From IMG/VR virus record IMGVR_UViG_3300020042_005850, positions 1 through 44,668 of that record: DNA of 44,668 nucleotides; one strand, given 5' to 3'. Positions 334 through 44,668 of this stretch are shown here, piece after piece; within the stretch, counting starts at the first letter, position 1, and each line of letters opens with the position of its first letter. Both the position numbers and the translations under genes were made by a program. The notes under the pieces are model-generated. The model saw nothing but the letters and a program-made list of their open reading frames with translations. It had not been told where the DNA came from and searched no databases. This stretch comes from a virus (lineage: Duplodnaviria > Caudoviricetes).

Positions 334-418
334 ACTTAACAAGTCGTTGAAAATGGACGGTCTGCCCATTTGTGTTTTTAGCTAAATCTTCATGCCGCCT
401 TTTAACTCGGCGTTAGCT
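334..418 (+). mobile_element. attC site
   Basis: R'' ACTTAAC, 5 nt spacer, L'' GTTGAAAA ... L' TTTTAAC, 5 nt spacer, R' GTTAGCT. Confidence 0.9.
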
Positions 419-628
419 GTGTATTGAGAAATAAAAGTTAATCGCGGCATCGTTGTACTTTTCAGCACATTCGTAGGCTTTCTTGTCAGCTTCAATACTG
501 GCGTGCGAATTATGATCACATGCTACGCAACCTTTAGCCGGTGATTTCAAATCATCTTTGCATTTTTCAATCTTGGCCTGTAGCTCAAATTTAATTCTGT
601 AAAGCTCTTCCAAATACTTTTTGTTCAT
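413..628 (-). CDS. Cassette-borne hypothetical protein (71 aa, coiled-coil-like with CxxC)
   Basis: GGAGTG RBS upstream of the ATG; stop in R'. Confidence 0.8.
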   Translation of the reverse strand: MNKKYLEELYRIKFELQAKIEKCKDDLKSPAKGCVACDHNSHASIEADKKAYECAEKYNDAAINFYFSIHS

Positions 629-649
629 GTTTTCACTCCGTTAAGTTTC

Positions 650-718
650 ATCTAACAAATCGTTGCAGCGCGATGCGGCAAGAGTTGTCTAAATATTGTA
701 GGCCGCCATTAGTTAAAT
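650..718 (+). mobile_element. Partial attC site (left arm intact, right arm degenerate); array boundary
   Basis: ATCTAAC-AAATC-GTTGCAGC-GCGATGCGGC ... GCCGC, then no proper L' or spacer before GTTAAAT. Confidence 0.65.
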
Positions 719-734
719 TGTATTACCTAATGAT

Positions 735-3254
735 TTATTTCTGCAAGTGTACAACATTGTTTGTAGATTGTACAACACCTTTATTTTTATACACCACTGC
801 AACTTCACTTGGTGGTAAGTGTGAATACAAATGATGGTTACGTATTATCCACAACACTCCAATTTCGCTATTAACTGAGTAGTGACCCTGCATCATTTCT
901 TTCAGTAATGTAGTTAATCGGGACGCGGGTAGCGCATGTTTTATTTCACTGCAAAACATTAGGTCAGCATGGAATGCGGATGCTGTAATTAATACTGCGT
1001 TTATTTCGTTAAGCGTAACTACGTCATTAACCAAAGCACCGAGTTTATGGTTTATCAATGATTCAACAGTAAGCATTAATGGTGATTTACCACTGTCGAC
1101 AATACTACGTAAATAATCGGTCACTGGTGGCGGTAAGCCTGGATTAAATTTACTTATGTCCACTTTTGTGCGTAAGTGATTAATACATATATCAGCACCC
1201 CCATTGTCCATCCACGCCCAGTGATCAGTCCAGTACGCCTGCCACTCAGGTGTCATGTCACCACGCGCATTGCGCACGTTGAGATCGGTCCATAGCGCGA
1301 ATATCCGGCGCGACTGACCTTTTAACGATACCGGCAACAGTGAGTTAGTGGTCATGGTTACTGACACAATATTTCGTACACTCACTTTCTTTGCGAACTT
1401 TTCGTTAACACGCAGTCGATCTGGTGGCGCAGCTGCCAGTGGTTTCAACTTAGCAGAAACAGCCATCGCTTCTTGACGATCGCCCAACTCAGCTTCATTG
1501 ATATGCAGGTATTTCGTTGATAACAAATAATCATTGAAACCCTCTAAAAGCTCTTCAGCATTAATCATTGTATAGTCGCGACCCATTGCTTTAGTCAGTG
1601 GTGCTAGTAACCAATCCTTACCACAACCTTCTCCACTACCAAAGATGATCATATGGTTAATTTTAATATCAGGGTGTAATAACGTGAAAGCCATCCACTT
1701 CAAACAATGTTCTCGCTGTTCGCCACCCCACCCCAGTAAGTCAAAGTGGTTAAGCCACGGTGAAGCATCACCGTCGACGCCTATCACTTGGGCGCTGCTG
1801 GACCATGAATTGCCATACAAAATACCCTGTTCTTCAAAAATAGGAGGCTTCATAGGTGCAAAATCAAGCTTATCAACTTTGGATACTCTGCCGCCTTGAA
1901 GTGCTTCCTTACGTGCGTCTGAATCAAGGTGTGCGTACACGTTCTGGTATGCTTCCGCGCTGTACCACATTCGCTTTTTACGATCAAAAAATTGATTCTG
2001 CTCACCGACGTATATCGTGTCATCGAAAAAGTTAATACCGGCTTTATTATCGCTATACCATGTGGCACGTAGGTCTTTGAGTATTCGGTCAAACTCTCGT
2101 TTATCCCAGTTCATAATATCGCGCACTTGACTATGCCAGTTAATTTTCTGAATTTCAGGTAATGAGTCGATTGTCTTTAAAACGACAGTGGCGATATTTA
2201 CTGATTGAGTGCTGCCAGGTATCTCAGACCGCAGTTGTCGTATAGCGTCTGCGAGCGGGTCAGTAGCTAATATGGGTACTACGGGTGACTCGACCATTAT
2301 TGCGGGTGTTGCTAAATCAGCAAATGCACGACGCATTTGCCACCCGCTTAATACGGAACTAAACCCAGGTGAACTAACTTCGATGTGATCGAGCAGGTTA
2401 CGACCGGTTCTTTCTTGACACGCCCCGTGGTGACATTTAAAACCGATAGTACCGTCACCGTTGGTGAACACCGCTGAACCGCTGTCATCAGCATTAGTAT
2501 GCTCGTCAACCCACGGACAAGTAATATCAAACCTACCGTTACCGCGTACTTCCTTTACATGGATTAAATCAGAGATTTGTAATAACGGATGATCCGCGAT
2601 ATTACTGGCACCATCCACGCGTGACTCACGTCGTGCAGCATTTAAGTCAACGTGAAATGGCGACGCTAATTGTTCGAGAGTTACTGTATTAAACGGGTTC
2701 CACTGCAACATACGGCATTTGAACGGCGCACCATTGACCCACCGTGACGCTTTAGTATTATAACCATCAGGTAGTCGAACATACCGAGTGACACCTTTCA
2801 TCCCTGGGTCACGCCCCTCTGGAGCCAGACCATTGGATACCAAACCATCTAACAAATTTTCAGCTTTTGTACGATCCGTGCAGGGTGTACTCAGTATATA
2901 ACCCCATTGCTCGCTGCCACCGGATGTTTCGAGTACCCACGACGGCGAAGGTAATTTAGATACTTCCGCCATTGATAGTTTCTCACGTACATCATCAAGT
3001 ACAATGCAGTGAGTAGCACTGTACAACGACTTGCGACGACGTGCGTCACCGCGTTCGTCAGCTTTAAATGTCGATATAGTAAAATACTGGTTTGTGTCAT
3101 TACCAAAGCTGTATTGTCCAAAATAGTTGCCTCGCCATGCCATCAAGTGTTTACCAGGAGGTATAGCACCAGGGTCATCTTTGAAGTCAGTAACGTGTAC
3201 TATTGAAACGCTTGTGCCGAAAATCGCACTTAAAAATTCATAATTTGTTGGCAT
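735..3254 (-). CDS. Primase-helicase (RepB/AEP-like primase, Cys/His zinc region, DUF5906/SF3-like P-loop helicase)
   Basis: IVLDD, WVLETSGGSEQWGY and RYVRLPDG primase motifs; CPW..H..C.H..C; Walker A GSGEGCGKD; Walker B-like LHINE. Confidence 0.88.
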   Translation of the reverse strand: MPTNYEFLSAIFGTSVSIVHVTDFKDDPGAIPPGKHLMAWRGNYFGQYSFGNDTNQYFTISTFKADERGDARRRKSLYSATHCIVLDDVREKLSMAEVSKLPSPSWVLETSGGSEQWGYILSTPCTDRTKAENLLDGLVSNGLAPEGRDPGMKGVTRYVRLPDGYNTKASRWVNGAPFKCRMLQWNPFNTVTLEQLASPFHVDLNAARRESRVDGASNIADHPLLQISDLIHVKEVRGNGRFDITCPWVDEHTNADDSGSAVFTNGDGTIGFKCHHGACQERTGRNLLDHIEVSSPGFSSVLSGWQMRRAFADLATPAIMVESPVVPILATDPLADAIRQLRSEIPGSTQSVNIATVVLKTIDSLPEIQKINWHSQVRDIMNWDKREFDRILKDLRATWYSDNKAGINFFDDTIYVGEQNQFFDRKKRMWYSAEAYQNVYAHLDSDARKEALQGGRVSKVDKLDFAPMKPPIFEEQGILYGNSWSSSAQVIGVDGDASPWLNHFDLLGWGGEQREHCLKWMAFTLLHPDIKINHMIIFGSGEGCGKDWLLAPLTKAMGRDYTMINAEELLEGFNDYLLSTKYLHINEAELGDRQEAMAVSAKLKPLAAAPPDRLRVNEKFAKKVSVRNIVSVTMTTNSLLPVSLKGQSRRIFALWTDLNVRNARGDMTPEWQAYWTDHWAWMDNGGADICINHLRTKVDISKFNPGLPPPVTDYLRSIVDSGKSPLMLTVESLINHKLGALVNDVVTLNEINAVLITASAFHADLMFCSEIKHALPASRLTTLLKEMMQGHYSVNSEIGVLWIIRNHHLYSHLPPSEVAVVYKNKGVVQSTNNVVHLQK

Positions 3255-4106: not shown

Positions 4107-5431
4107 GTCATGCAAGGTTAGGGCCATCGAATCACCGATGGCCACACTGCCCTGGCTCAGTACGTGAAGAAGCGTCATATCCCGACATAGCCGGTGACGC
4201 GGCTATCGACGGTACCGGCAGTCATACCCTACTTGAGTTGTGTTTAGTTAATGGTGTACGTGCTGACGCTTATGAGGGTCAGATCATTGGCGTAGGTCAT
4301 CACGATCAACCGATGGGGTGGATTGTCAATCAAGACCGCATTGATCGTGTACAAATGTGTCTCGATTACGTGACCCGTAGAGTAACTGAGCTACGTGATG
4401 AGTATCCAAATCACACTGTAAAAGTAGCTGCTGAAACTAAATCCGACCCGGGTGGTATGTTCGGTCGTGATGATTGGTGGGGTACTACTGACATCACGAT
4501 TACCGTATGTAATGACCATAATTATTATCCATTGATTGAAGTGTGTGATTATAAAGATGGTCGTGGATGGGTGCCTGCGAACGATAACACCCAGCTTATA
4601 AGTTATATGGCCGGTAAGGTACGACCAATCGTGAGTAGTGGTCCTCTAATGGTTAGACCATTTAATACGATTAAAGTTGGCATATGTAGAATGAGTATCG
4701 TCCAACCTAAGACTACACCAGTTGTACGTTATCAAGATGTTAGTGTGAGTTGGGTAATAGATCGCGCTGAAGAGTTATCACTCGCTGCATCACGCACGGA
4801 CGACCCTGTCGCACCATTGGTCAGTGGTAAACACTGTCAGTGGTGCAAGCACAAGAAAAACTGTACTGCTGAATCTGAGCAGTCGTTACAAGTAACCGGG
4901 GCGATTATGACAGACGTAACAGCAAGTGATGGTGTCAGCTTATTTGAACTGGTGAGCAATACGCTAGTTAACATGGGTGATTTAACTTCAGATCAATTAT
5001 CACAACTAGCCGACGCACGCGCGGGTATCGAAGCAGTGTTTGATAAAGTTGAATCTGAAATTCAACGACGTGTTGAAGCGGGTGAATTAGTACCAGGTTA
5101 TGCAATGGTGCCAGGTAGAAACTCGAATAAGTGGAATGTCGATGAAGAATCAATTGCTAAGATGTTAAAGGCTCGCAGGTTAACTAAGAATATAATTTAT
5201 CCGACATCGTTGATCTCACCGGCTCAAGTTTTAAAGCTAAAAGAATTAAACGATGAGCAAAAAGCTAAGATTCAAAAGGAATATATTTCAACAGTGTCGA
5301 GTGGTTCAAAACTGGGAAAGGTTGCCCGTGAATCTAAAAAACCAAACATTGAAAATATGTTTAATGAAGTTGTTGCACAATGTACAACTGATGCTGTAGA
5401 ATCAGTTCCTCAAGCAGTCTCATTCTTCTAA
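4103..5431 (+). CDS. DUF2800 family Cas4-like PD-(D/E)XK exonuclease
   Basis: HARLGPS..RWPHCPGS, GTTD, DYKDG, QL..Y and HCQWC.HK..C cysteine cluster. Confidence 0.85.
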   Translation: MSHARLGPSNHRWPHCPGSVREEASYPDIAGDAAIDGTGSHTLLELCLVNGVRADAYEGQIIGVGHHDQPMGWIVNQDRIDRVQMCLDYVTRRVTELRDEYPNHTVKVAAETKSDPGGMFGRDDWWGTTDITITVCNDHNYYPLIEVCDYKDGRGWVPANDNTQLISYMAGKVRPIVSSGPLMVRPFNTIKVGICRMSIVQPKTTPVVRYQDVSVSWVIDRAEELSLAASRTDDPVAPLVSGKHCQWCKHKKNCTAESEQSLQVTGAIMTDVTASDGVSLFELVSNTLVNMGDLTSDQLSQLADARAGIEAVFDKVESEIQRRVEAGELVPGYAMVPGRNSNKWNVDEESIAKMLKARRLTKNIIYPTSLISPAQVLKLKELNDEQKAKIQKEYISTVSSGSKLGKVARESKKPNIENMFNEVVAQCTTDAVESVPQAVSFF

Positions 5432-6793: not shown

Positions 6794-8811
6794 TGACTAC
6801 TGACTTCATATTCAACTTACCACCACAGTCAATGATCTGTTACGACATTGAGTCATACCCTAATGTGTTTACATTCACTGCTCGAAAAGGTGGTCGTAAG
6901 TGGGTGTTTGAAGTTAGTGAACGAAGAAATGACCTTGCACTTTTTATCTTGTTTATGGATACGTGCCGACAGTTAAACATTGAATGGGTGGGTTATAACA
7001 ACATTGGTTATGACTACCCAGTTTGCCATTACATTTATAAATCTCAGCGTGCCTCAATTGGCGCAGCTGAGATTTATTTAAAATCAATGTCGATTATTAA
7101 TGCAACTGATCAAGCACGCTTTTCAAATACAGTGTGGGAATCTGATTGGGTGGTGCCTCAAATTGATTTATATAAACTTCATCATTTCGATAACATGGCG
7201 AGGGCAACATCATTGAAGGTGTTGGAATTCAACATGGGAATGTTGAACATTGAAGAGGCACCGTTCCCATTTGGCACACCTGTAGCTATTGAACAGATAG
7301 ATTCATTACTCGCGTATAACGATCACGATGTTATAGCGACTGAAATGTTTCTTGAAAATTCGAGTAAACAAATTGACCTACGTCGCAAGCTTAGTGAAAA
7401 ATATAATACTAATTTTATTAATCACAACAGCACTAAAATCGGCAAAGATATTTTAATTACAGCATTAGAAAATGCATCACCAGGGTGTTGTTACAATTAC
7501 TCATCCGGTCGTAAACGAATGGTTCAAACTAAGCGTGACCAAATTGTCATTGCGGATATTATTTTTCCTTACGTACAGTTTAATCACCCTGAATTTAATC
7601 GTGTTCTAACATGGTTTAAAGCTCAAGTGCTGACTGAAACTAAGGGGTCAATTAAAGACGTAAATTGTAGTATAAATGGATTCCAATTTGACTTCGGTAC
7701 TGGCGGTATTCATGGGTCAGTTGATTCTCAAATTGTTAATGCTGGTAACGGTTTTAAAATAATCGATATTGACGTGAAAAGTTATTACCCGACACTGAGT
7801 ATTCGCAACAATGTTTATCCTGCGCATTTGAGTAGTGTGTGGTGTGAAATTTATGGTGGGATATTTAATACTCGCCAGAATGATTACCCTAAGAAAACAC
7901 ACCCTATTGAGAACGAGGCATTCAAGCTTGCACTCAACGGTGCATACGGTGATACTAACTCTGAATACTCACCACTGTACGATCCTCAGTACACCATGAC
8001 CATCACTATCAACGGTCAACTGTTGATCTGTATGCTCGCTGAAGCGCTCATGGCTGCGAGTAATCTAACTGTGGTTCAGGTTAATACTGACGGTATCACT
8101 GTTAAAATACCTAACCACCTTGAGCAGTGGGTCATGTCTGTGTGCAAGTGGTGGGAAAGTGTTACTAAGTTAGAACTAGAATATGCGAACTACTCACGCA
8201 TGTTTATTCGTGACGTGAATAATTATATTGCTGAGTACACCAATGGTGATTTAAAGCGCAAAGGTGCCTATGAATACGATATTGATTGGCACCAGAACCA
8301 CTCGGCACTTGTTGTACCTAAAGCGGCTGAAGCTGCACTGGTACATGGTGAAAACATTCGTGAGTTTATTATCAACCACAAAGATATTTTTGATTTCTTT
8401 TTATGCGCTAAAGTACCTCGTTCATCGCATCTTGAATATCGTGGTGAGAAGGTGGGTAACATCGCTCGGTATTACATAAGTCACGATAGTTCACCGTTAT
8501 TTAAAGTCATGCCATCCAAAGGTGTAGCAGGTGAATATAAACGCGCTAACAGTATTCCCGATCATATTTATAATCAAATAAAATCTGAAGTAGGTAGTGT
8601 ATGGGACGCCCGAATTAATACTAAAAATAAATCTGTGTATGATGCTGAAAATAGAACTGGTATTAATTCGGGTTGGTGTGTAACATTGTGCAACAATTTG
8701 AATATCCATACTGTGGATGATCTAAATATCGAATGGTACATCAAAGAAACTGAAAAACTTGTTTACTTACTGAAGGGTGAATCCGATGGGCGTGAGGGAA
8801 AACAAAGTTGA
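6793..8811 (+). CDS. DNA polymerase, family B-like, with 3'-5' exonuclease
   Basis: YDIE and GYNNIGYD (exonuclease); DVKSYYP (motif A); KLALNGAYG (motif B); NTDG (motif C). Confidence 0.92.
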   Translation: MTTDFIFNLPPQSMICYDIESYPNVFTFTARKGGRKWVFEVSERRNDLALFILFMDTCRQLNIEWVGYNNIGYDYPVCHYIYKSQRASIGAAEIYLKSMSIINATDQARFSNTVWESDWVVPQIDLYKLHHFDNMARATSLKVLEFNMGMLNIEEAPFPFGTPVAIEQIDSLLAYNDHDVIATEMFLENSSKQIDLRRKLSEKYNTNFINHNSTKIGKDILITALENASPGCCYNYSSGRKRMVQTKRDQIVIADIIFPYVQFNHPEFNRVLTWFKAQVLTETKGSIKDVNCSINGFQFDFGTGGIHGSVDSQIVNAGNGFKIIDIDVKSYYPTLSIRNNVYPAHLSSVWCEIYGGIFNTRQNDYPKKTHPIENEAFKLALNGAYGDTNSEYSPLYDPQYTMTITINGQLLICMLAEALMAASNLTVVQVNTDGITVKIPNHLEQWVMSVCKWWESVTKLELEYANYSRMFIRDVNNYIAEYTNGDLKRKGAYEYDIDWHQNHSALVVPKAAEAALVHGENIREFIINHKDIFDFFLCAKVPRSSHLEYRGEKVGNIARYYISHDSSPLFKVMPSKGVAGEYKRANSIPDHIYNQIKSEVGSVWDARINTKNKSVYDAENRTGINSGWCVTLCNNLNIHTVDDLNIEWYIKETEKLVYLLKGESDGREGKQS

Positions 8812-30650: not shown

Positions 30651-30888
30651 AGAAATTCTCTTTTAATAGTTGTTGGTACTCACCTGGTGCAGCACCTTTC
30701 AACTCATTCACTAAACTTATTGCAGCCGACCGCCTACCTGCATTGAATGATTGAATCATTGGGTCAACTGCAAACGTGTCACTAAAATAACCCATTGATC
30801 GCAATAAACGTGCCATGAAACTTCTCCCACCAGTAGTTTTCATAATACCAGTTACGTCAGCAATTTCAATAGCACGTTGTTCATTCAT
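30643..30888 (-). CDS. Bbp19-like small protein
   Basis: GR.FM.RLL and FNAGRR motifs; precedes the scaffold gene. Confidence 0.7.
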   Translation of the reverse strand: MNEQRAIEIADVTGIMKTTGGRSFMARLLRSMGYFSDTFAVDPMIQSFNAGRRSAAISLVNELKGAAPGEYQQLLKENFYD

Positions 30889-32369
30889 TAAAGTATCCAT
30901 CCCCAGTCATATGCAACCACGAATGTAACTACACCGGATGTAGTCACCACACCGATATTCTTAGCGGCAATTGCTACGAATTCACCAGGGTACACGGGGA
31001 TAGGTCTATCAAATTTAACCTGTACTGTATCACTCACTGCGCCCACTGCTGCTGTCGCTGCGAACTGAATAAACCCTGGTAACGGGATTCTACGCGGTGA
31101 TTTAGTATTTGCTGAGTCAGTGGTTGCCAGTGACACGTTCGTATGACCATAACATAGGCTCGGTATGTAGATCACTGGGGTGGCATTACCACCTAGAACA
31201 GTAGTGACAATAGCTTTAATCGTTACCCCTGAGATCACTAACTGTTTACCCGTGATTGCAACTGTACCGAGTGGGTTCTGGTAGCTACACACGATGCCGT
31301 CGGTGTTAGCCGTCAATGTTGGTAACGCTGAAAACTGACCGCCCATGCCCGTACCGAGTGCCGCAGTGGTGTTAGTCATCGCCGCACCAGCGGTAGGTGC
31401 GAGGGAGTTCGTGTAGTTAGACACCGACCCCATTGTATGACCCGATTGACCCTGCTGCCCACCCGTTAATACTGCTGCGGAGGTAGGTTCTGATCGAGTG
31501 TTGGTTAGACCGTCATTGGTGACAATCGCCTCAACCACGTTCATTGATATAACGCCGGATGCAGCAGTACCACCGATTGCATGTGATACCGATATAGGCG
31601 CGCTACCGCCGTACATAGGGCGACGTGTTGCCGCTGATAAGTTGATTCTGTTGGCGACTTGGAAGCTGTTACCGTCCTGATAATCAACCCAGAAAATAAC
31701 GGATCTGCTAGATGACGATATGATTACATCGTAAGCAGTACCCATCGTCGGCACAAAAGCGGCGCCGCCATTTACTAGCACCCACGGTGTACCTGATTGC
31801 TCAGTACCGTTCACGTTCGCAACACCGAAAACACCGGTGTTATTCGATCTAACAGCAACACCGTCGAGTAGTGCAAAAGGTGTTGTTAAGTTTTTTAATC
31901 CGAGCGCAACTTCCATTGTTGTATTGGTTACGGCCCATGTACCCGTCCATCGGATTTTTAAATAGACATACGTGGCACTCGCACCGAACATCGGATAGTG
32001 CTGTTTACTCTGCCACAACACACCTGTGTTAATCGTCGTGATGCTGGATGCGTTAGTTTGCAGTTGACCACCGTAACCCAGTGTCATAGTTGTATTGGCC
32101 GCTGTAGATTGACCAGTATCCTGTGCTGCTGCGTTGAACTGGTGTAATCCAAGGATAGTGTTAGGACTCATCCGAAACTGGAAATCTTCATTCACCTCAC
32201 CCGCTAATAGACTGGGGGTGCCTGTGATTAAACCTGCATCCACCTCTGATACTGGGCGATTGTAACCAGCTTGTACCAGTACACTCGGTAACGTCACCTT
32301 GGCATTACCGAAGGTATCACCACCCAGTAATGACGCATCACCTGCTAAATTAATTCCTGCACCGGCCAT
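30888..32369 (-). CDS. Putative virion structural / decoration protein (beta-rich)
   Basis: 493 aa, Thr/Gly/Ala-rich; lies in the head module. Confidence 0.6.
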   Translation of the reverse strand: MAGAGINLAGDASLLGGDTFGNAKVTLPSVLVQAGYNRPVSEVDAGLITGTPSLLAGEVNEDFQFRMSPNTILGLHQFNAAAQDTGQSTAANTTMTLGYGGQLQTNASSITTINTGVLWQSKQHYPMFGASATYVYLKIRWTGTWAVTNTTMEVALGLKNLTTPFALLDGVAVRSNNTGVFGVANVNGTEQSGTPWVLVNGGAAFVPTMGTAYDVIISSSSRSVIFWVDYQDGNSFQVANRINLSAATRRPMYGGSAPISVSHAIGGTAASGVISMNVVEAIVTNDGLTNTRSEPTSAAVLTGGQQGQSGHTMGSVSNYTNSLAPTAGAAMTNTTAALGTGMGGQFSALPTLTANTDGIVCSYQNPLGTVAITGKQLVISGVTIKAIVTTVLGGNATPVIYIPSLCYGHTNVSLATTDSANTKSPRRIPLPGFIQFAATAAVGAVSDTVQVKFDRPIPVYPGEFVAIAAKNIGVVTTSGVVTFVVAYDWGWIL

Positions 32370-32370
32370 A

Positions 32371-33672
32371 TTAAACCCCTATACACATAACTGAATAATT
32401 GCCACGAGCTTGCGGCATTGAATAAAGTGTGATTGTAAACCCCACCCCAGCAACCAAGTCGCTAATGACCGGTTTCAAATCTAATAGATACAACTCATCT
32501 GGATCTGCACCCGTAGGTGTTAATACCTGTGCTATAATATCACTAGTTGACGTAACCCATGATTGACCAGTAACTACGGTTTGAGCTTTATCAGTAAATG
32601 TAGCACCAAACGCGAGAGTAACTGTTAATGAATTTCCGCCAGACGACGGTGTATCAAGTATCCATGTGTTGGTACCCGTGCGCTTCGCATAACCTGTGCC
32701 AGTGAGTGCGGCAATAGCTGATAGATCATCATCTATTGGTTGCTTGTCATTCAATGCAACATCTAAACCTGCAATATCACTCATTTCTGGAGCTTTATTT
32801 TCCCATAAGCCGCTTATCGAATTATAAAATAAAACATCACCCGCTGCGACTGATGTTACCATCACATTATGCAGGTCATCAATCTCATAACCATTCTGAA
32901 TTGATACATCTATCTGCCCCTGTGTGGCATGTGCACGAGTAACAACACCTACAAAAACACTATGCATTGGGGCTACTGGCTCTGTGGCAGTGATTGCTCC
33001 CGCAGTCACGTCACTTAAATAAACCAATGCGCCATCGGCGTATGCACTCGTATTTAAACCTGACAAATCGCCACTAACTACAACATACCCATTAGTATTA
33101 GTAGCAATATCTGCTTGAACTAAACCGTAGGTTCTATCTGATAATGCTGCACTACTACCGACTGCCAGAGCTATTGTAGGCTTATTACCACTGGCACCAG
33201 ATATGTAAACAACGGACCCCTTGGTAATAGTGACACCTGAAACATTACGCACTTGCCTTACTAATGTCCCCGCCTGCCCTGCTACAGGAAACGCCGCCGG
33301 AACACCATCACCCATTAGGTACTGAGTAGTATCACCAGTAGGAATGTCGAACTTAGAATTAATCTGAGTAACTAATGTATCGTAGTCAATAATTATTGAC
33401 CATGTAATACCATCACAGATATATAAACCACCTGATTTACGGTTGATTAACCATATGCCGGTTGACTGCTTGACTAGATACACTTCACCCGCATGTGCTG
33501 CTGCGCTGGGTAATAGTGCGTAAGTATCAACCTCGCCATCGATGACTGTACCCGAACCACCGCTACCGAAGTTAATCAGATACTCTTTACCATCGCGCCC
33601 AAAGAACCCTACCGGTGCCTTAGTAACACGGTCCGTAAGGATATAAGCTTGTTGATAATCGTAGTCACTCAT
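32371..33672 (-). CDS. Putative fibre-like virion protein
   Basis: 433 aa with modular fibre-type segments (N.SG.TI.KG.VVYISG; LDVALNDKQP.D.DLSAIA). Confidence 0.6.
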   Translation of the reverse strand: MSDYDYQQAYILTDRVTKAPVGFFGRDGKEYLINFGSGGSGTVIDGEVDTYALLPSAAAHAGEVYLVKQSTGIWLINRKSGGLYICDGITWSIIIDYDTLVTQINSKFDIPTGDTTQYLMGDGVPAAFPVAGQAGTLVRQVRNVSGVTITKGSVVYISGASGNKPTIALAVGSSAALSDRTYGLVQADIATNTNGYVVVSGDLSGLNTSAYADGALVYLSDVTAGAITATEPVAPMHSVFVGVVTRAHATQGQIDVSIQNGYEIDDLHNVMVTSVAAGDVLFYNSISGLWENKAPEMSDIAGLDVALNDKQPIDDDLSAIAALTGTGYAKRTGTNTWILDTPSSGGNSLTVTLAFGATFTDKAQTVVTGQSWVTSTSDIIAQVLTPTGADPDELYLLDLKPVISDLVAGVGFTITLYSMPQARGNYSVMCIGV

Positions 33673-40005: not shown

Positions 40006-40265
40006 ATACAACTCTATTAATAGCTGAGCAAGACCTTACATGTGATAATTGTCAGCTCTACGAAAAACCAGACATACGACGACGGTGTAAGATAACCCAC
40101 TCATGTGGGTTTTTTTTGGAGTCAAATATGTCAGAAAGTAGATTTGTGAAATACACTCGCCCCGGTCAAAGCTGGTGTTCATTGGTAATGGCATTTATCT
40201 ACATAATGAATGGCGGAACAGATACTACCATTGCTAGGTTATTATTAGCACTACCGTGGACTTGA
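40002..40265 (+). CDS. Hypothetical protein (possibly degraded)
   Basis: ATGA-coupled to the endolysin with GAGGTG RBS; CxxC; contains a T9 run. Confidence 0.4.
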   Translation: MNTTLLIAEQDLTCDNCQLYEKPDIRRRCKITHSCGFFLESNMSESRFVKYTRPGQSWCSLVMAFIYIMNGGTDTTIARLLLALPWT

Positions 40266-40390
40266 GGCAGATTGGTAAGGGTGTGGAATCTTTCACAGCT
40301 AAGTAAATACATGGCCTACGCCGCATTTTCACATTATCAAACCTAAGTTACTGATTTTTATAGATTCGATTTTGTGGAAATGCGGCCTGA

Positions 40391-40412
40391 GCCGCTGAAT
40401 AAACTGTTATGT
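40391..40412 (+). mobile_element. Partial attC (right arm only); left array boundary
   Basis: GCCGCTGAAT-AAACT-GTTATGT, preceded by an inner stem GCCGCATTTTCACA/TGTGGAAATGCGGC. No intact R''. Confidence 0.65.
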
Positions 40413-40413
40413 T

Positions 40414-40566
40414 TTAGTCTTCATATTCCATTATGTGCAAAATTGCTTGTAGCTCTTCTGCTGTAAATGTGCCATCTAATTGAACCTCTTCATCGTCACC
40501 AATAAATTTAATCTCTCTATCTTTTTTAATATCTTTGATTATTTCTCTTGCCTCAAAACCTCTCAT
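40414..40566 (-). CDS. Cassette hypothetical protein (50 aa, not in the ORF track)
   Basis: MRGFEAREIIKD...LHIMEYED; AGGTGA RBS. Confidence 0.7.
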   Translation of the reverse strand: MRGFEAREIIKDIKKDREIKFIGDDEEVQLDGTFTAEELQAILHIMEYED

Positions 40567-40573
40567 AAGTCAC

Positions 40574-40738
40574 CTATTTATTTTTCAGGCTTTCCGCACA
40601 ACCAAGCAGCACAATTTTAAAAAGCTCCGGTTTGTCTTTGTGCCAGTTTATTAAAGTCTGCGCGCTCTGGCCGGTTAATTGCTGAACTTGAAGCAGGTTT
40701 TTTAGTCCTGCCTCTTTTGCCTGTTGGCTTGGGGTCAT
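40574..40738 (-). CDS. Small HTH DNA-binding protein (54 aa, not in the ORF track)
   Basis: MTPSQQAKEAGLKNLLQVQQLTGQSAQTLINWHKDKPELF; HTH pattern; GAGGTG RBS. Confidence 0.75.
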   Translation of the reverse strand: MTPSQQAKEAGLKNLLQVQQLTGQSAQTLINWHKDKPELFKIVLLGCAESLKNK

Positions 40739-40899
40739 TTAAGCACCTCAAAATAATGGCTTTCAATAAATCCACCGCCAACTGCAAAACCTGAAGATGT
40801 TATTTTTTCAGTTCTAACGGTCCAAACCTCACCAGGTTTAAATTTAAACCTAGGAAGAAACGCATCTTTTACAATGCGCACATTTGTATATTTCTCCAT
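40735..40899 (-). CDS. Cassette hypothetical protein
   Basis: MEKYTNVRIVKD...; coupled to the upstream and downstream ORFs. Confidence 0.65.
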   Translation of the reverse strand: MEKYTNVRIVKDAFLPRFKFKPGEVWTVRTEKITSSGFAVGGGFIESHYFEVLK

Positions 40900-40900
40900 A

Positions 40901-41047
40901 TTAAACCACCGAACTGTATGTGCCATTTTCGTACGCAGTGCAAGAGTAAAAGGCTTTGCCTCTTGGTTTTTGGAGCTTGAGAAGTGTGCGCCCGTTAACT
41001 TTCGTTGATTTTATTACTTTGTATTCTTGGCCGTTTATTGTTAACAT
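40901..41047 (-). CDS. Cassette hypothetical protein (48 aa, basic, not in the ORF track)
   Basis: MLTINGQEYKVIKSTKVNGRTLLKLQKPRGK...; GAGGG RBS; directly after a promoter. Confidence 0.7.
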   Translation of the reverse strand: MLTINGQEYKVIKSTKVNGRTLLKLQKPRGKAFYSCTAYENGTYSSVV

Positions 41048-41079
41048 TTTTTAACCCTCGTTTGTGTTTGTATGTTGTT

Positions 41080-41107
41080 AGTATAACAAACTATTTGAAG
41101 GAATCAA
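41080..41107 (-). promoter_or_regulatory. Sigma70-type promoter internal to the first cassette
   Basis: TTGATT-16 nt-TATACT with an extended -10 TG. Confidence 0.7.
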
Positions 41108-41130
41108 GCTTTATTTAAAACTATTTGATT

Positions 41131-41334
41131 TTATGTGTTCGGTGCTGAAAGAAATCGCCAATGCGTGTAGTTGTGTAAATAGTTATGGTCACAATCCCCA
41201 TATTTGTCTATCTTATCAATGTAGTGTAAAGGTGAGTCTCTCATTGTTTTTTCGCCATCGTAAAATTCAACCCAAGTCTCTATTGGTGGCGTGCGGGGTT
41301 TTTCACCAGTACGCCATATTTTTATCCATTCCAT
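41131..41334 (-). CDS. DUF551-like small phage protein
   Basis: MEWIK...P...THW..L..P pattern; GAGG RBS. Confidence 0.6.
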   Translation of the reverse strand: MEWIKIWRTGEKPRTPPIETWVEFYDGEKTMRDSPLHYIDKIDKYGDCDHNYLHNYTHWRFLSAPNT

Positions 41335-41349
41335 ATCTATAACCTCTAT

Positions 41350-41562
41350 TTAGTCTATTCCAAGTTCCGTCACATTTACTGGTTCTATCGTAAAGTTGCA
41401 GCCAAACTGTGCAACATTAAACGCTAAATGTTCGTCACAAAAACAACCATTGGCGCGTACTATTTTTCCCGTTGCTGGTTTTTTGCAGTTAAAAAACTTG
41501 CACATAACAAGCGTATCAACTGGACAAGCCAAGGCGTTGCTGTTTTCTGTCTCAAGTTCCAT
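41350..41562 (-). CDS. Cassette Cys/His protein whose N-terminus is encoded inside attC
   Basis: MELETENSNALACPVDTLVMC is read from the attC left arm; C...C...CDEH. Confidence 0.6.
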   Translation of the reverse strand: MELETENSNALACPVDTLVMCKFFNCKKPATGKIVRANGCFCDEHLAFNVAQFGCNFTIEPVNVTELGID

Positions 41563-41619
41563 AAATTTCACCGTGTTAAAAGTTTTTCATTTGCTTGCGC
41601 AGTTATCCGAGCGTTACAT
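41502..41619 (+). mobile_element. attC site
   Basis: ACATAAC-5-TATCAACT ... AGTTATC-5-GTTACAT. Confidence 0.88.
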
Positions 41620-41622
41620 TCA

Positions 41623-41820
41623 CTAGCCTAACACCTTATTCAAATTCTCAAACTCTGAAAAAGTAATGCTTCGAGTGAAAGTTAAAACCCATTTTTCCGG
41701 CTGTTTTTGTGTGAACAAAATTAGCTCATTAAATTCACCCTCAAATACATCCATATCGTAGTTCCAAGGGTTTGAATTATTAAACTTGTTCTGCCACATG
41801 TAAGAATAAAACCAATACAT
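41623..41820 (-). CDS. Cassette hypothetical protein
   Basis: Strong RBS AGGAGGTGA. Confidence 0.8.
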   Translation of the reverse strand: MYWFYSYMWQNKFNNSNPWNYDMDVFEGEFNELILFTQKQPEKWVLTFTRSITFSEFENLNKVLG

Positions 41821-41851
41821 AAATCACCTCCTAAATTAAATTGCTATGCAA

Positions 41852-41924
41852 ATGTAACCAGTCGTTGGTACTCGCTCGTTCCTCGCTGGACGCACTACGT
41901 GCGCCGCACAACTCGGCGTTATGA
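41852..41924 (+). mobile_element. attC site
   Basis: ATGTAAC-CAGTC-GTTGGT ... GCACAAC-TCGGC-GTTATGA. Confidence 0.88.
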
Positions 41925-42137
41925 CTCTAGCGCTAGTTTTGCTTTTTCTTCTACTCTGTCAAACCCAACTCCGTAAACATTACCTTGGGTTTGTTGCACG
42001 TAGCGTAACCCGCTTCTAGCATCTAGCAACGCATCTTCTAGCTGGCGTGCTTGTCGCGCAAACTCATCCATAGTCCACTCGTCTGGCCTATCAGTTCTAT
42101 ATCGTTCTAATTTTTCGCTTAGCTTCACTTTCATCAC
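41919..42137 (-). CDS. Cassette hypothetical protein
   Basis: GGAG RBS; stop in R'. Confidence 0.8.
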   Translation of the reverse strand: MMKVKLSEKLERYRTDRPDEWTMDEFARQARQLEDALLDARSGLRYVQQTQGNVYGVGFDRVEEKAKLALES

Positions 42138-42149
42138 TCCGGTATTTGG

Positions 42150-42237
42150 TCATAACAAGGCGTTCCAGCACGGATGCTGCAAGAACTCGCCTTGTAGTTG
42201 GTTTTGGTGCTGGCACCGCTGAACATTGGCGTTATGT
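42150..42237 (+). mobile_element. attC site
   Basis: TCATAAC-5-GTTCCAGC ... GCTGAAC-6-GTTATGT. Confidence 0.92.
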
Positions 42238-42489
42238 AGCCATCCAATCAAGATTATCCCCGTACTTTGAGCGTAATGCCGTTGAAAACTCTTCGCCAGT
42301 GGCAGGAGTTTCATTTCTTTGTACTTCTAGCCATTTTGCAATTCTTTCGCGCTCGGCTATTTCTGCTTCCATTACAGATTGTTTTAATGCCTGCAATAAA
42401 CTTCTACTATTCGGCATTCCAACATTTTCCATAAGCTGCTTGTATCTTTCATCTGTTAACATATCTAAATCCTCGCAAGCATCCGACAC
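42232..42489 (-). CDS. Cassette hypothetical protein
   Basis: Fills the cassette from R'' to R'; start uncertain (GTG 42489 or internal ATG). Confidence 0.75.
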   Translation of the reverse strand: MSDACEDLDMLTDERYKQLMENVGMPNSRSLLQALKQSVMEAEIAERERIAKWLEVQRNETPATGEEFSTALRSKYGDNLDWMAT

Positions 42490-42573
42490 ATAACAAAAAT
42501 ATGAACTGGATGCGGTTTAAGTTGGGCGCACTTCTGTTTAGTTAGAAGCGCACCAGTTATATTGGCGTTAAGT
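42488..42573 (+). mobile_element. attC site
   Basis: ACATAAC-5-TATGAACT-GGATGCG ... CGCACC-AGTTATA-5-GTTAAGT. Confidence 0.92.
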
Positions 42574-42768
42574 GTTCTCAATCATCGAGTTCGGCACTCG
42601 TAATTGAAGTTTTTCATAAATGCTTTTTGCTAACCGGTAGTCTTCTTTTTCTAAGTATTCTGGGTTTAGGTCTTGCACGGCGTTGAACCACTGGCATACC
42701 TTGTAAAGCTCGTTTTGCGTAAGCATTTTTTGAACAAGTGGGTCACCGCCTTGATTGTCTTGTGCCAT
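42568..42768 (-). CDS. Cassette hypothetical protein
   Basis: GGAG RBS; stop in R'. Confidence 0.75.
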   Translation of the reverse strand: MAQDNQGGDPLVQKMLTQNELYKVCQWFNAVQDLNPEYLEKEDYRLAKSIYEKLQLRVPNSMIENT

Positions 42769-42808
42769 TTTCTTTAACTCCGTAGTTAAATTTTTACCGT
42801 TAGAATCT

Positions 42809-42917
42809 ACTTAACAAGTCGCTGAAAGGCGACGGTTCATAAATCTGTTTTCTGTTCTGGCATCTTCATGCCGCGCTTTACTCTCATTCCCTGCCGCAAT
42901 TTATAACGGCGTTACAT
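42809..42917 (+). mobile_element. attC site (composite, with two right arms)
   Basis: Left arm ACTTAAC-AAGTC-GCTGAAAG; an incomplete matching arm GCCGCGCTTTACTC; then a second arm GCCGCAATTTATAACGGCGTTACAT. Confidence 0.75.
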
Positions 42918-43106
42918 TTCAATGTTGTTGAAAGCCTTAACCTTTATTTCAACCTCGGATGGCCGTATTGGGTAGAATTTATCATCAATAATTTTTCTGC
43001 AAATATCCAGCAAATTGTCTTTTGATAAATCCGCGTCAATGATTCCAAACCAAAATTTATTTACGTCTTTATTCCAAAGCTCAAACTGCAAAAAATATGT
43101 TTTCAT
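42912..43106 (-). CDS. Cassette hypothetical protein
   Basis: MKTYFLQF...; GGTGGT RBS; stop in R'. Confidence 0.78.
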   Translation of the reverse strand: MKTYFLQFELWNKDVNKFWFGIIDADLSKDNLLDICRKIIDDKFYPIRPSEVEIKVKAFNNIEM

Positions 43107-43118
43107 ACCACCACCAAA

Positions 43119-43201
43119 ATGTAACAAAGTTATCAAACGGATGCGGCTATAACACCGCATTATTTATTTTCGTACTGGCACCGTTTATAACGGCGTTATG
43201 T
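43119..43201 (+). mobile_element. attC site
   Basis: ATGTAAC-5-TATCAAAC-GGATGC ... GCACC-GTTTATA-5-GTTATGT. Confidence 0.92.
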
Positions 43202-43390
43202 GTACGTCCTGCACTTGCTTTCCATGTGCTGGCTTGATTCAAAAAATCCATGCGCCCAATAATCCTCAAAATCACAATCTTTGCATTTCGTGAATGCTTC
43301 GCTAATAATTCCGTTGTCAGTATCATTAGCCTCAACTTCGTTTTTCCCTCCGCATTTGTTGCAAGAGTCTTTAACGTGGTAAGTCGCCAT
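43196..43390 (-). CDS. Cassette zinc-ribbon protein
   Basis: CNKC...CKDC; GGAG RBS adjacent to R''; stop in R'. Confidence 0.78.
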   Translation of the reverse strand: MATYHVKDSCNKCGGKNEVEANDTDNGIISEAFTKCKDCDFEDYWAHGFFESSQHMESKCRTYT

Positions 43391-43400
43391 AAGTAGCTCC

Positions 43401-43484
43401 ACATAACCAGTAAATGAACGCGACGGAATTAGAGCGTCGCAATGTTTTAAATCTTACAGCCGCAGCGTTATTAAGGCGTTATAC
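43401..43484 (+). mobile_element. attC site
   Basis: ACATAAC-5-AATGAACG ... CGTTATT-5-GTTATAC. Confidence 0.9.
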
Positions 43485-43709
43485 GGCGCTCTTGTCGTCC
43501 AGCGTTCTAACTCGCTCAACATTGCCGCACTTGTTGCACTTAACGCGTAAATGGTCTTTTTTGGCAGTAAGCTTGTAAAATAAATCATACTCGCTGCTTT
43601 GCACGAACTCGGTTTCAATCCGCTTTAGAGAAGACGAGTCAATTACGTTTGTTCTAACTATGAATTTAGTATCTAAATCTTTGCTTCCGCACTTATTACA
43701 GTTTTCCAC
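43479..43709 (-). CDS. Cassette zinc-ribbon protein
   Basis: CNKCG...CNKCG; GTG start likely; stop in R'. Confidence 0.75.
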   Translation of the reverse strand: MENCNKCGSKDLDTKFIVRTNVIDSSSLKRIETEFVQSSEYDLFYKLTAKKDHLRVKCNKCGNVERVRTLDDKSAV

Positions 43710-43721
43710 TTCGTCTGCCCC

Positions 43722-43807
43722 GTATAACAAGTAGCGTCAAAATGACGCGGTTTAAATATCAGTTTTTAATGCTTACTCCCAGCGCGCATTTGCGCTAAGC
43801 GTTAAAT
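43722..43807 (+). mobile_element. attC site
   Basis: GTATAAC-5-GCGTCAAAATGACGCG ... CGCGCATTTGCGC-5-GTTAAAT. Confidence 0.88.
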
Positions 43808-44038
43808 ATCATCCGCAACACTGTACGCTGTAATTAGCGTCAGGCTCGATGGAACTTCATATTCGTGTCGTTTATTGATTTCGATAAGCTTTTCAATTGC
43901 GGCTTCTTCTGAATCATGGCCGCCCCAACTATTAAGTGATTCAGTATTGTAATATGCGCCGAATTCTTTTGGCTCTTTCAGCAACCCATCGCTCGTTAAT
44001 TCTTTCCAGTAGTATTTTTTCTTAATCATCGCAAGCAT
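43802..44038 (-). CDS. Cassette hypothetical protein
   Basis: Fills the cassette; stop in R'. Confidence 0.8.
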   Translation of the reverse strand: MLAMIKKKYYWKELTSDGLLKEPKEFGAYYNTESLNSWGGHDSEEAAIEKLIEINKRHEYEVPSSLTLITAYSVADDI

Positions 44039-44043
44039 CCCAA

Positions 44044-44126
44044 ATTTAACGCCGTTATGAAATTGACGGAAATAGAATTCCGCGTTTAGTTAGTTCGTGC
44101 AGCCGCAATTTATAACGGCGTTAAGT
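44044..44126 (+). mobile_element. attC site (fully paired outer stem)
   Basis: ATTTAACGCCGTTAT-G-AAATTG-A-CGG ... CCG-CAATTT-ATAACGGCGTTAAGT. Confidence 0.9.
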
Positions 44127-44548
44127 GGCGCTAATAGCCCGCAAAAGCTCGTAGGCCACCATCGGATCAATTGCGTTACCTAATGATTTATTTCTGTCCA
44201 TCCTATTGGGTAATTCATCATCCACTCTAAGCGCAGGGGGCTTAATTCCCCATCGCCCAATCGCACGGCCTCGCCAGTCCACTCCAAACCGTAAACCGCA
44301 GCGTCCTTCATTGTTGCTATCTTTTTCCGGCCCTTGCGCGCAGTATTCATTTGCCGCGCCATCGCTTCTGGTGACCTCGCTTTCATTGCGTCCATTGCTT
44401 GCGGCGTAGGCCACAATAAAAACTCGCTCCCTGTTATGGTTTGCACCTGTGCTGAGAGCTGGAACAACAAACGGTTGGCAGGCGTAACCAAGGGCTTCCA
44501 AATCGTGCAACACACAGTCCAGTCCCAAAGCGATGTGGCCATAAACAT
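44121..44548 (-). CDS. C5-cytosine DNA methyltransferase, main chain, C-terminal part
   Basis: ENV (motif VI), HNRERVFIVA (motif VIII) and SLGNAIDP (motif X). No motif IX in this frame. Stop TAA lies in the attC R' box. Confidence 0.93.
44180..44548 (-). CDS. Putative second (beta) subunit of the methyltransferase, overlapping in the +1 frame (start ATG at 162 across the junction; 176 aa)
   Basis: Open frame MVKTLQELTLLP...LWPTP...LSPLRLEWMMNYPIGWT, whose C-terminus resembles C5-MTase motif IX. It is fully nested in the main gene. Confidence 0.75.
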   Translation of the reverse strand: MFMATSLWDWTVCCTIWKPLVTPANRLLFQLSAQVQTITGSEFLLWPTPQAMDAMKARSPEAMARQMNTARKGRKKIATMKDAAVYGLEWTGEAVRLGDGELSPLRLEWMMNYPIGWTEINH

Positions 44549-44668
44549 TTTCGCAAATTGCCCAAGTGGGTTTTGCTTGTGCAATAATTCTGCGCATTTC
44601 CGGCCAGAGGTGGCGTGAATCATCTTGCGCTTTTTGGCTTCCGGCAACGCTAAAAGGCTGGCACGGGT
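44549..44668. repeat. Terminal direct repeat, right copy
   Basis: Identical to 1-120. Confidence 0.97.

Follow-up and report, generated by a model that had tools for sequence, protein, structure and literature searches.

An integrase-less phage array of reversed gene cassettes headed by a Cellvibrio-type attI site

The window examined here, a stretch of 44,668 nt that is the whole of IMG/VR record IMGVR_UViG_3300020042_005850, is a circular tailed-phage genome (about 44.5 kb, with a 120-bp terminal overlap; completeness rated 100%) in which a run of small open reading frames (ORFs) is separated by sites resembling the attC sites of integrons. The original prediction had noted that the R′ box opening each cassette is the reverse complement of the R″ box closing that same cassette, and took this as the footprint of real excision and integration: each unit would have existed as a free circle, and the array would have been assembled cassette by cassette, and recently. 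The locus raises the question of what such matched boxes record, and of how an array of this kind could be filled and read in a phage. The answer favored here, which seems probable, is an integrase-less phage array with a Cellvibrio-type attI site and ten complete or hybrid attC sites, its genes reversed, which would be loaded and shuffled by the integrase (IntI) of a host and read as part of a phage operon. By membership it is a cluster of attC sites lacking integrases (CALIN) with an attI site, and not a complete integron: there is no intI gene, and the ORFs are not co-oriented with the attC top strand.

A polar scanner called attC sites on the + strand only, in the window and in its closest relative (L001). 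The polarity of the scanner was validated on arrays beside bona fide intI genes (L090, L131, L094), whose ORFs run in the sense direction; the Shewanella intI gene of L094 (9280–10393) is broken near its C terminus, and appears as two tblastn pieces in different frames. The hairpin has the order R″–5 nt–L″ (with an extra base)–variable terminal structure–L′–5/6 nt–R′; nine of the ten window sites pair at 6–7 of 7 L-box positions, and that at 42809 at 4 of 7. To avoid circularity, 189 linkers were also delimited by R boxes and ORFs alone, with no hairpin filter. Of these, 172 pair at 6–7 of 7 positions with the extra base on the R″ arm and none in the mirror register, although the set includes 23 different L″ sequences; linkers with shuffled arms pair in 11% of cases. 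This pairing identifies the + strand as the attC top strand, so that the boxes had been labelled correctly from the start. The opposite assignment, with the − strand as true top strand and the ORFs canonical, was discarded on the empty mirror register, on the position of attI on the + strand, and on the left core, which is never shared between copies of the same body (see below).

The ORFs of all 11 window units are antisense to the attC top strand. The comparison set comprises 250 distinct bodies from 54 phage or phage-like contigs, found by pattern searches blind to ORF direction; five of the contigs came from binned bacterial genomes (two with terminase or portal genes, three too short for certainty). 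Loci with fewer than two attC calls and contig duplicates were dropped (most of 61 bacterial matches; L036, L049, L058, L133, L168, L169). The array-bearing contigs have flanking genes of unrelated phage types, and their bodies are antisense in 238 cases and sense in 10, with two ties; for ORFs filling at least 65% of the body the figures are 217 and 6. A Cellvibrio set of 288 bodies gave 45 antisense and 238 sense, or 9 and 153 for filled ORFs. The R′ box holds the stop codon in 132 of the 238 antisense phage bodies. The phage body is, in short, the mirror image of a normal cassette. That such bodies are host cassettes turned around is not favored: phage and host bodies gave no match to each other by tblastx, and no body was seen in both orientations.

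At the head of the window array, 34 of 41 nt are identical to a Cellvibrio-genus site in L245, which there precedes a sense cassette; against the attI next to the intI gene of L195 the count is 29 of 41. It is by this likeness that the site is taken as attI. The L245 site, nearly identical to that of the window, is in a genome (G042) without a strong intI match. The same attI type heads 40 of the phage arrays examined, and is also found in L169, a close relative. At 5001 in both L168 and L169 there are attI-like sites with no attC called 3′ of them (L169 ends 200 nt on; L168 continues for 4.5 kb), possibly empty phage platforms. An IHF-like motif precedes attI by 40–110 nt in 25 of 40 phage arrays (at about 40345–40360 in the window). 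In L001, the last R′ box (8717–8723) contains the stop codon of the primase gene, as if that array had been seeded at a secondary site there.

No tyrosine recombinase was found in the window by PHROGs profiles, by tblastn with two IntI sequences, with a custom hidden Markov model, or with PF00589 at E 10, and tblastn found no IntI in the phage loci that it covered, which are partial contigs. An intI gene is present in 41 of 64 genomes of Cellvibrio, the genus of G002, and the host of the phage would be of Cellvibrio type.

Copies of the same body in different phages were compared in 20 cross-phage pairs (three L066/L071 pairs, from one array, were left out). The right core is shared at ≥96% in 3 of 20 pairs and the left core in none, against a random-pair background of 0.7%; sharing of the right core without the left supports canonical insertion at G/TT. 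Two window cassettes, 41613 and 42911, are found again in L029, their ends unchanged. In contigs of one public run, the first body of the window (40406–40732) starts at an R′ box behind an attC rather than an attI, and body 41613 is followed by a third core. Bodies thus move between phages as units bounded at G/TT.

Their cores are less constant. A body's own core is kept at ≥80% in 4 of 21 phage pairs, and among host pairs drawn from different genomes in 12 of 15 (Fisher p=5e-4). This contrast is only indicative, since the pairs lack independence and host cores start out more similar to one another than phage cores do (3.9% vs 0.7% at ≥90%). Repeats within single arrays of two other bacteria kept the core in 15 of 15 cases. 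Homology between shared bodies ends at the R boxes; where the spacers differ, it stops no more than two bases from the R″ AAC. R″ is the cut point in top-strand attC recombination (PMC2727003, PMC5027507). The ORF, the cassette ends and the attC core reassort separately.

As to the matched boxes themselves, all 22 heptamers of the original prediction lie where it placed them, and ten of the 11 cassette-wise pairs are exact reverse complements, the eleventh (412/650) having one mismatch. None of the ten linear attC sites has perfect R boxes (1–3 mismatches each). The shuffle test that had been proposed was run as an exact permutation over all 11! pairings, and ten matches gave p=6.0e-7; the nine single-ORF cassettes alone gave p=2.2e-5. 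Only 3 of the 7 heptamer positions vary in the window array. The pair 44120/334 is legitimate because the window is circular, with its terminal overlap. The pair 40406/41502 is weak evidence, since its unit is fused (about five ORFs, with decayed internal R boxes) and its heptamer is common, occurring in 46 of 250 phage bodies. The second proposed test, retention of the flanking heptamers by homologues in other genomes, was passed as well: homologous bodies in other phages retain both heptamers in 18 of 20 pairs, amid differing neighbors. Folding of the circularized junctions, also suggested at the outset, gave a mixed result: the bottom strand folds better at 7 of 10 sites, the linear sites have no consistent bottom-strand bias, and DNA folding energies did not separate the strands. 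No self-joining cassette was present among the listed joints in contigs of related phages. Of the 20 sequencing runs listed for the array, none was an RNA run and each had only a small share; the four that were looked into gave contigs of relatives.

The R′/R″ match by itself is an ordinary integron trait. It is found in 220 of 250 phage bodies; in bacteria, nine arrays gave 55 of 68, the first host set 86 of 96 bodies beside intI, and the larger Cellvibrio set 205 of 288, with 4–13% expected from random pairing. Since host arrays share it, the match neither dates the window array nor proves former circles, and recent assembly, as originally proposed, is not supported. Of the 220 matched phage pairs, 196 are still paired at position 8, but no more than 38 of these 196 also at position 9. 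This reach suggests selection on the box bound by integrase, and not a decaying clock; R-box pairing has been noted to run past the 7-nt boxes (PMC2727003). Nor is a perfect match needed for movement, since host genome G024 has copies of a cassette whose R pair is mismatched dispersed over many positions. This repeat (L254–L257, L263) is about 375 bp long and has no ORF. A cassette begins at the first T of an R′ box and ends at the G of the following one; the attC proper to it is that of the circular form (PMC2674596). No direct statement on cassette-wise complementarity was found in the accessible parts of PMC3518468, PMC2761259, or PMC8946536. That R″ matches the R′ of its own cassette has reportedly long been known from work of the Stokes and Hall groups.

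Cassette ends are, moreover, reused around unrelated ORFs. Of the filled phage ORFs, 75 of 214 share a leader (22 nt, ≥18 matches) with an ORF to which they have no blastp link at E 0.01, and 30 of these 75 also share the last 12 nt; the host figure is 0 of 153, and mid-ORF controls gave 0 and 2. In one such shell, the leader stops at the start codon and the trailer begins just past the stop codon. Among nine of its bodies, blastp convincingly links only two pairs, and further copies added more ORF types; the cargo includes Acb2/Tad1 (PF24729), Tad2 (PF11195), and other unrelated ORFs. Small anti-defense or sponge-type genes and other small phage genes are enriched in this shell (L040, L042, L101, L107, L274, L275, L278, L280, L283). 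The shell to which window body 41613 belongs has 25 member bodies, among which blastp links just three pairs. Four leader motifs were tested, and none was found outside a cassette context.

Because ORF, ends, and core reassort separately, matched ends can be inherited from a refilled shell. The claim of an excision and integration footprint therefore survives in part: units do move with G/TT boundaries, but their matching ends may also be a legacy of the shell. The stronger claim, that each unit was once a circle, is not supported in view of the reused ends and of the mismatch of cassette 11, which is common to L134. The original prediction also overlooked the reversal of the ORFs, the attI site, and the missing integrase gene. 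The reuse of ends by related phages likely shows one way in which new gene cassettes arise.

The layout of the array, the antisense ORFs, the absence of a recombinase, and the movement of bodies are all observed directly; from them we infer the enzymatic steps as follows. Circular cassettes would be taken up at the attI of the phage, with host IntI carrying out the usual bottom-strand recombination. Reversal would be retained by transcription from the primase side, with a terminator blocking the attI side: the primase gene runs in the same direction as the cassette ORFs and is likely the upstream part of their transcript, a hairpin 3′ of the endolysin gene (Table 1) is predicted to stop transcription entering from the attI side, and in 28 of 33 phage arrays the gene past the distal end shares the direction of the cassette ORFs. 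Selection for an R box paired over 8 bp would maintain the R′/R″ match. R boxes, leader, and sometimes trailer would form a reusable shell, whose content would be replaced from start to stop by new phage genes; illegitimate or microhomology recombination, with selection as a filter, is the probable route. The attC cores would be swapped at R″, most simply through top-strand cleavage by IntI. The whole is likely an accessory-gene array run by host IntI. A bolder version, a mirror-image cassette economy on the host integrase, in which phages of integron-rich hosts act as cassette factories that refill shells (paired R boxes, ribosome site, and trailer), including with anti-defense genes, and swap cores by top-strand recombination, is tentative and may well go too far.

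Several observations count against the favored account. No circle, transcript, or recombination event has been observed, and with no body seen in both orientations the inversion step is unobserved as well. The host is proposed from site similarity and binned contigs only; just 22 of 295 phage cores match the first host core set, and host cores are longer (118 vs 71 nt). Exchange of cores at R″ is indistinguishable from microhomology exchange at the conserved R″-spacer bases, hosts swap cores too (3 of 15 host cross-genome pairs fall below 80%), and the hybrid attC at 42809 and fused unit 1 show that non-IntI deletions act here. Short proteins may hide distant homology despite having no blastp link. 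The distal flanking gene is opposed in 5 of 33 arrays, and promoter scans were at chance level (13 vs 13.7 and 9 vs 8.8).

One alternative is the original one, that each present unit, ORF together with its own attC, was once a free circle inserted singly, with perfect pairing as a mark of recent assembly. The permutation result, the heptamers kept in new neighborhoods, and the better bottom-strand folding of circularized junctions speak for it, and in L001 the corresponding locus carries different ORFs and 14 attC sites. It is nevertheless unlikely, given that chromosomal arrays have the same trait, that ends and even a mismatch are inherited across unrelated ORFs, that 17 of 21 pairs show no coupling of body and core, and that unit 1 is composite.

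Two further possibilities are less likely again. The sites might be linker repeats, without a part for IntI, across which the annealing and exonuclease proteins of the phage shuffle genes by homologous or illegitimate recombination. A Gp2.5-like annealing protein and an exonuclease are indeed encoded and an integrase is not, near-identical cores are common (238 pairs at ≥90%), and besides the hybrid core and fused unit 1, L055 has another core that looks chimeric. Crossovers at random internal points would disrupt the co-varying paired L boxes that 172 of 189 linkers keep; with attI retained in 40 arrays of unrelated phage types, and homology of shared bodies ending at the R boxes, this explanation is improbable. 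It is harder still to see attI as mainly a means of integrating the whole integrase-less phage into a host attC, with the cassettes as a by-product. A host-type attI in a complete genome without integrase, and phage contigs binned with Cellvibrio genomes, could be read in this way. No prophage was found within any host array examined, array-bearing phages L030 and L134 have their own integrase, and an occupied attI already bears a long and variable array, all of which makes this very improbable.

Some traffic between phage and host arrays is visible. In host-type array L239 there is a phage-type cassette in antisense orientation; its core and that of window site 42488 are 88% identical. Phage array L059 holds a sense cassette, and one phage core is 96% identical to a host core.

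The features of the window array are collected in Table 1. Within unit 1, 40578–41126 resembles a cassette in L055 and 41131–41375 one in L161, both intact there, and a promoter-like site lies at 41107–41080 on the − strand. The surrounding block (41044–41126) matches the L055 cassette at 89% and is also present in high-depth contigs from three runs; the cassette with this block would be a promoter-bearing one with a small regulator-like ORF (40574–40738). The hybrid attC at 42809..42917 is predicted to be a poor substrate. The methyltransferase of body 10 is, by its motifs, presumably of the cytosine-C5 type. Within its gene, a 158-aa ORF in an alternative frame (44121–44597, −) also matches methyltransferase PHROGs, and appears to hold a motif absent from the main frame; we take this two-frame layout to resemble enzymes of the M.EcoHK31I type. 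A 21-bp repeat (44176–44196 and 723–743) places the 3′ end of the methyltransferase cassette again at the primase stop codon, where it is possibly a sequence remnant of another such cassette at the distal array end.

Table 1. Coordinates of the array and its flanking features in the window.
Feature	Position	Strand	Comparison or basis
Terminator-like hairpin, 3′ of endolysin	40094..40120	+	Consensus scan alone; similar post-endolysin hairpin in L001, L003
attI-like site, predicted crossover G/TT at 40406/40407	40372..40412	+	Likeness to Cellvibrio-genus sites
Unit 1, fused block, about 5 small ORFs, internal R boxes decayed	40406..41508	−	Sequence matches to L055, L161
attC, 118 nt, L″/L′ 6/7	41502..41619	+	
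Body 2, ORF 41623–41820 (65 aa), member of "shell 1"	41613..41858	−	91% identity to L029 body with other core
attC, 73 nt, L″/L′ 6/7	41852..41924	+	
Body 3, ORF 41919–42137, stop codon within R′	41918..42156	−	
attC, 88 nt, L″/L′ 7/7	42150..42237	+	
Body 4, ORF end 42232, leader common to unrelated ORFs (L061, L239)	42231..42494	−	
attC, 86 nt, L″/L′ 7/7	42488..42573	+	Core 100% identical to L066 core (unrelated body); 88% to Cellvibrio-type host array L239
Body 5, ORF 42568–42768	42567..42815	−	
Hybrid attC, 109 nt, L boxes 4/7	42809..42917	+	Left arm of one core type, right arm of another
Body 6, ORF end 42912	42911..43125	−	94% identity to L029 body with different core (57%)
attC, 83 nt, L″/L′ 7/7	43119..43201	+	
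Body 7, ORF 43196–43387 (63 aa)	43195..43407	−	Free-standing homologues without attC in other phages
attC, 84 nt, L″/L′ 7/7	43401..43484	+	
Body 8, Cys-rich ORF, end 43479	43478..43728	−	Zn-ribbon matches weak, below cut-off
attC, 86 nt, L″/L′ 7/7	43722..43807	+	
Body 9, ORF 43802–44038, leader common to L055, L059	43801..44050	−	
attC, 83 nt, L″/L′ 7/7	44044..44126	+	Among the commonest core types (10 contigs)
Body 10, intact 250-aa DNA methyltransferase ORF	44120..44548, on through circular junction to 340	−	
attC, 85 nt, L″/L′ 7/7	334..418	+	
Body 11, ORF 413–628	412..656	−	R mismatch and leader common to L134, which has a different ORF
Truncated last attC, R″ and L″ present, L′ lost	650..718	+	17 nt from primase stop codon
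Primase gene	735..3254	−	Same direction as cassette ORFs

Most of the cassette ORFs have no assigned family. No Pfam match above cut-off was obtained for 23 window proteins; among cassette proteins of related phages, 21 of 233 have a family (methyltransferases, Lar, DUF551, HTH, PNKP, and RNA ligase domains, among others). Homologues of ORF 43196 occur in ten named phage records, and the three contexts scanned all lack attC. The array is flanked by the endolysin region on one side and the 3′ end of the primase gene on the other. By its PHROGs matches the genome is that of a tailed phage, which encodes a primase, a polymerase, a helicase, a Gp2.5-like annealing protein, an exonuclease, head and tail proteins, and an endolysin. 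For two large ORFs (493 and 433 aa; 30888–33672, −), located between the genes for the head-tail adaptor and the capsid, PHROGs gave no match and Pfam no significant one. An Rfam scan of the entire window gave no matches, and the primase as query against viral contigs none either; a blastn search with the array against 50,697 named phages returned three records, all short gene fragments.

The origin of gene cassettes has been described as an open question (PMC5371416, PMC8618304). The phage arrays contain what look like intermediates (a gene both free-standing and as a cassette, the same ends with unrelated genes, the same gene with different cores), and these states make cassette genesis testable. 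If correct, the cassette-factory route would be a means of de novo cassette formation without reverse transcriptase, and would explain R boxes that are matched at birth. Integrons are known as stores of anti-phage genes; phages, for their part, appear to use integron sites for methyltransferases, Lar, Acb2/Tad1, and Tad2. Reversal would keep phage genes captured by a host unexpressed from the cassette promoter (Pc).

Among known systems, the array is closest to the sedentary chromosomal integrons of Cellvibrio and other Gammaproteobacteria (intI-attI-Pc-cassettes), which it resembles in attI sequence, attC architecture and polarity, cassette-wise R′/R″ match, R-box stop codons, and some shared cores. 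It differs from them in that the window has no intI, and phage arrays are antisense, with phage-type cargo, refilled shells (75 of 214 vs 0 of 153), and shorter bodies (260 vs 444 bp) as well as cores. Small genes in mosaic phage genomes are replaced from start to stop between conserved boundary sequences; here, the boundaries are integrase-type sites, so that a refilled unit would become a mobile cassette. Top-strand attC recombination is described as a rare error that inverts a whole cassette including its attC (Bouvier 2009, PMC2727003; Nivina 2016, PMC5027507). Cleavage at R″ could similarly detach a core or invert a body, but the window cores keep canonical polarity and the bodies alone are reversed. 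No paper on reversed phage cassettes or refilled shells was found in a search whose coverage mostly excluded subscription journals. CALINs have been reported in virulent phages by Qi et al. (2023; PMC9892861), including one with a DNA methyltransferase cassette, and their phage attC sites recombined with IntI1. The window array is like these in having an attC cluster, no integrase, and a DNA methyltransferase cassette. The orientation described in the accessible text of that paper is typical, or with occasional divergent sites, and an attI-headed integrase-less array, uniform reversal, and reassortment of ends and cores do not appear in its main text, although its S1 annotations or figures could show ORF direction. 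By this comparison, the reversal and the attI site without an integrase are the unusual part of the phage array, and the reassortment of ORF, ends, and core is new.

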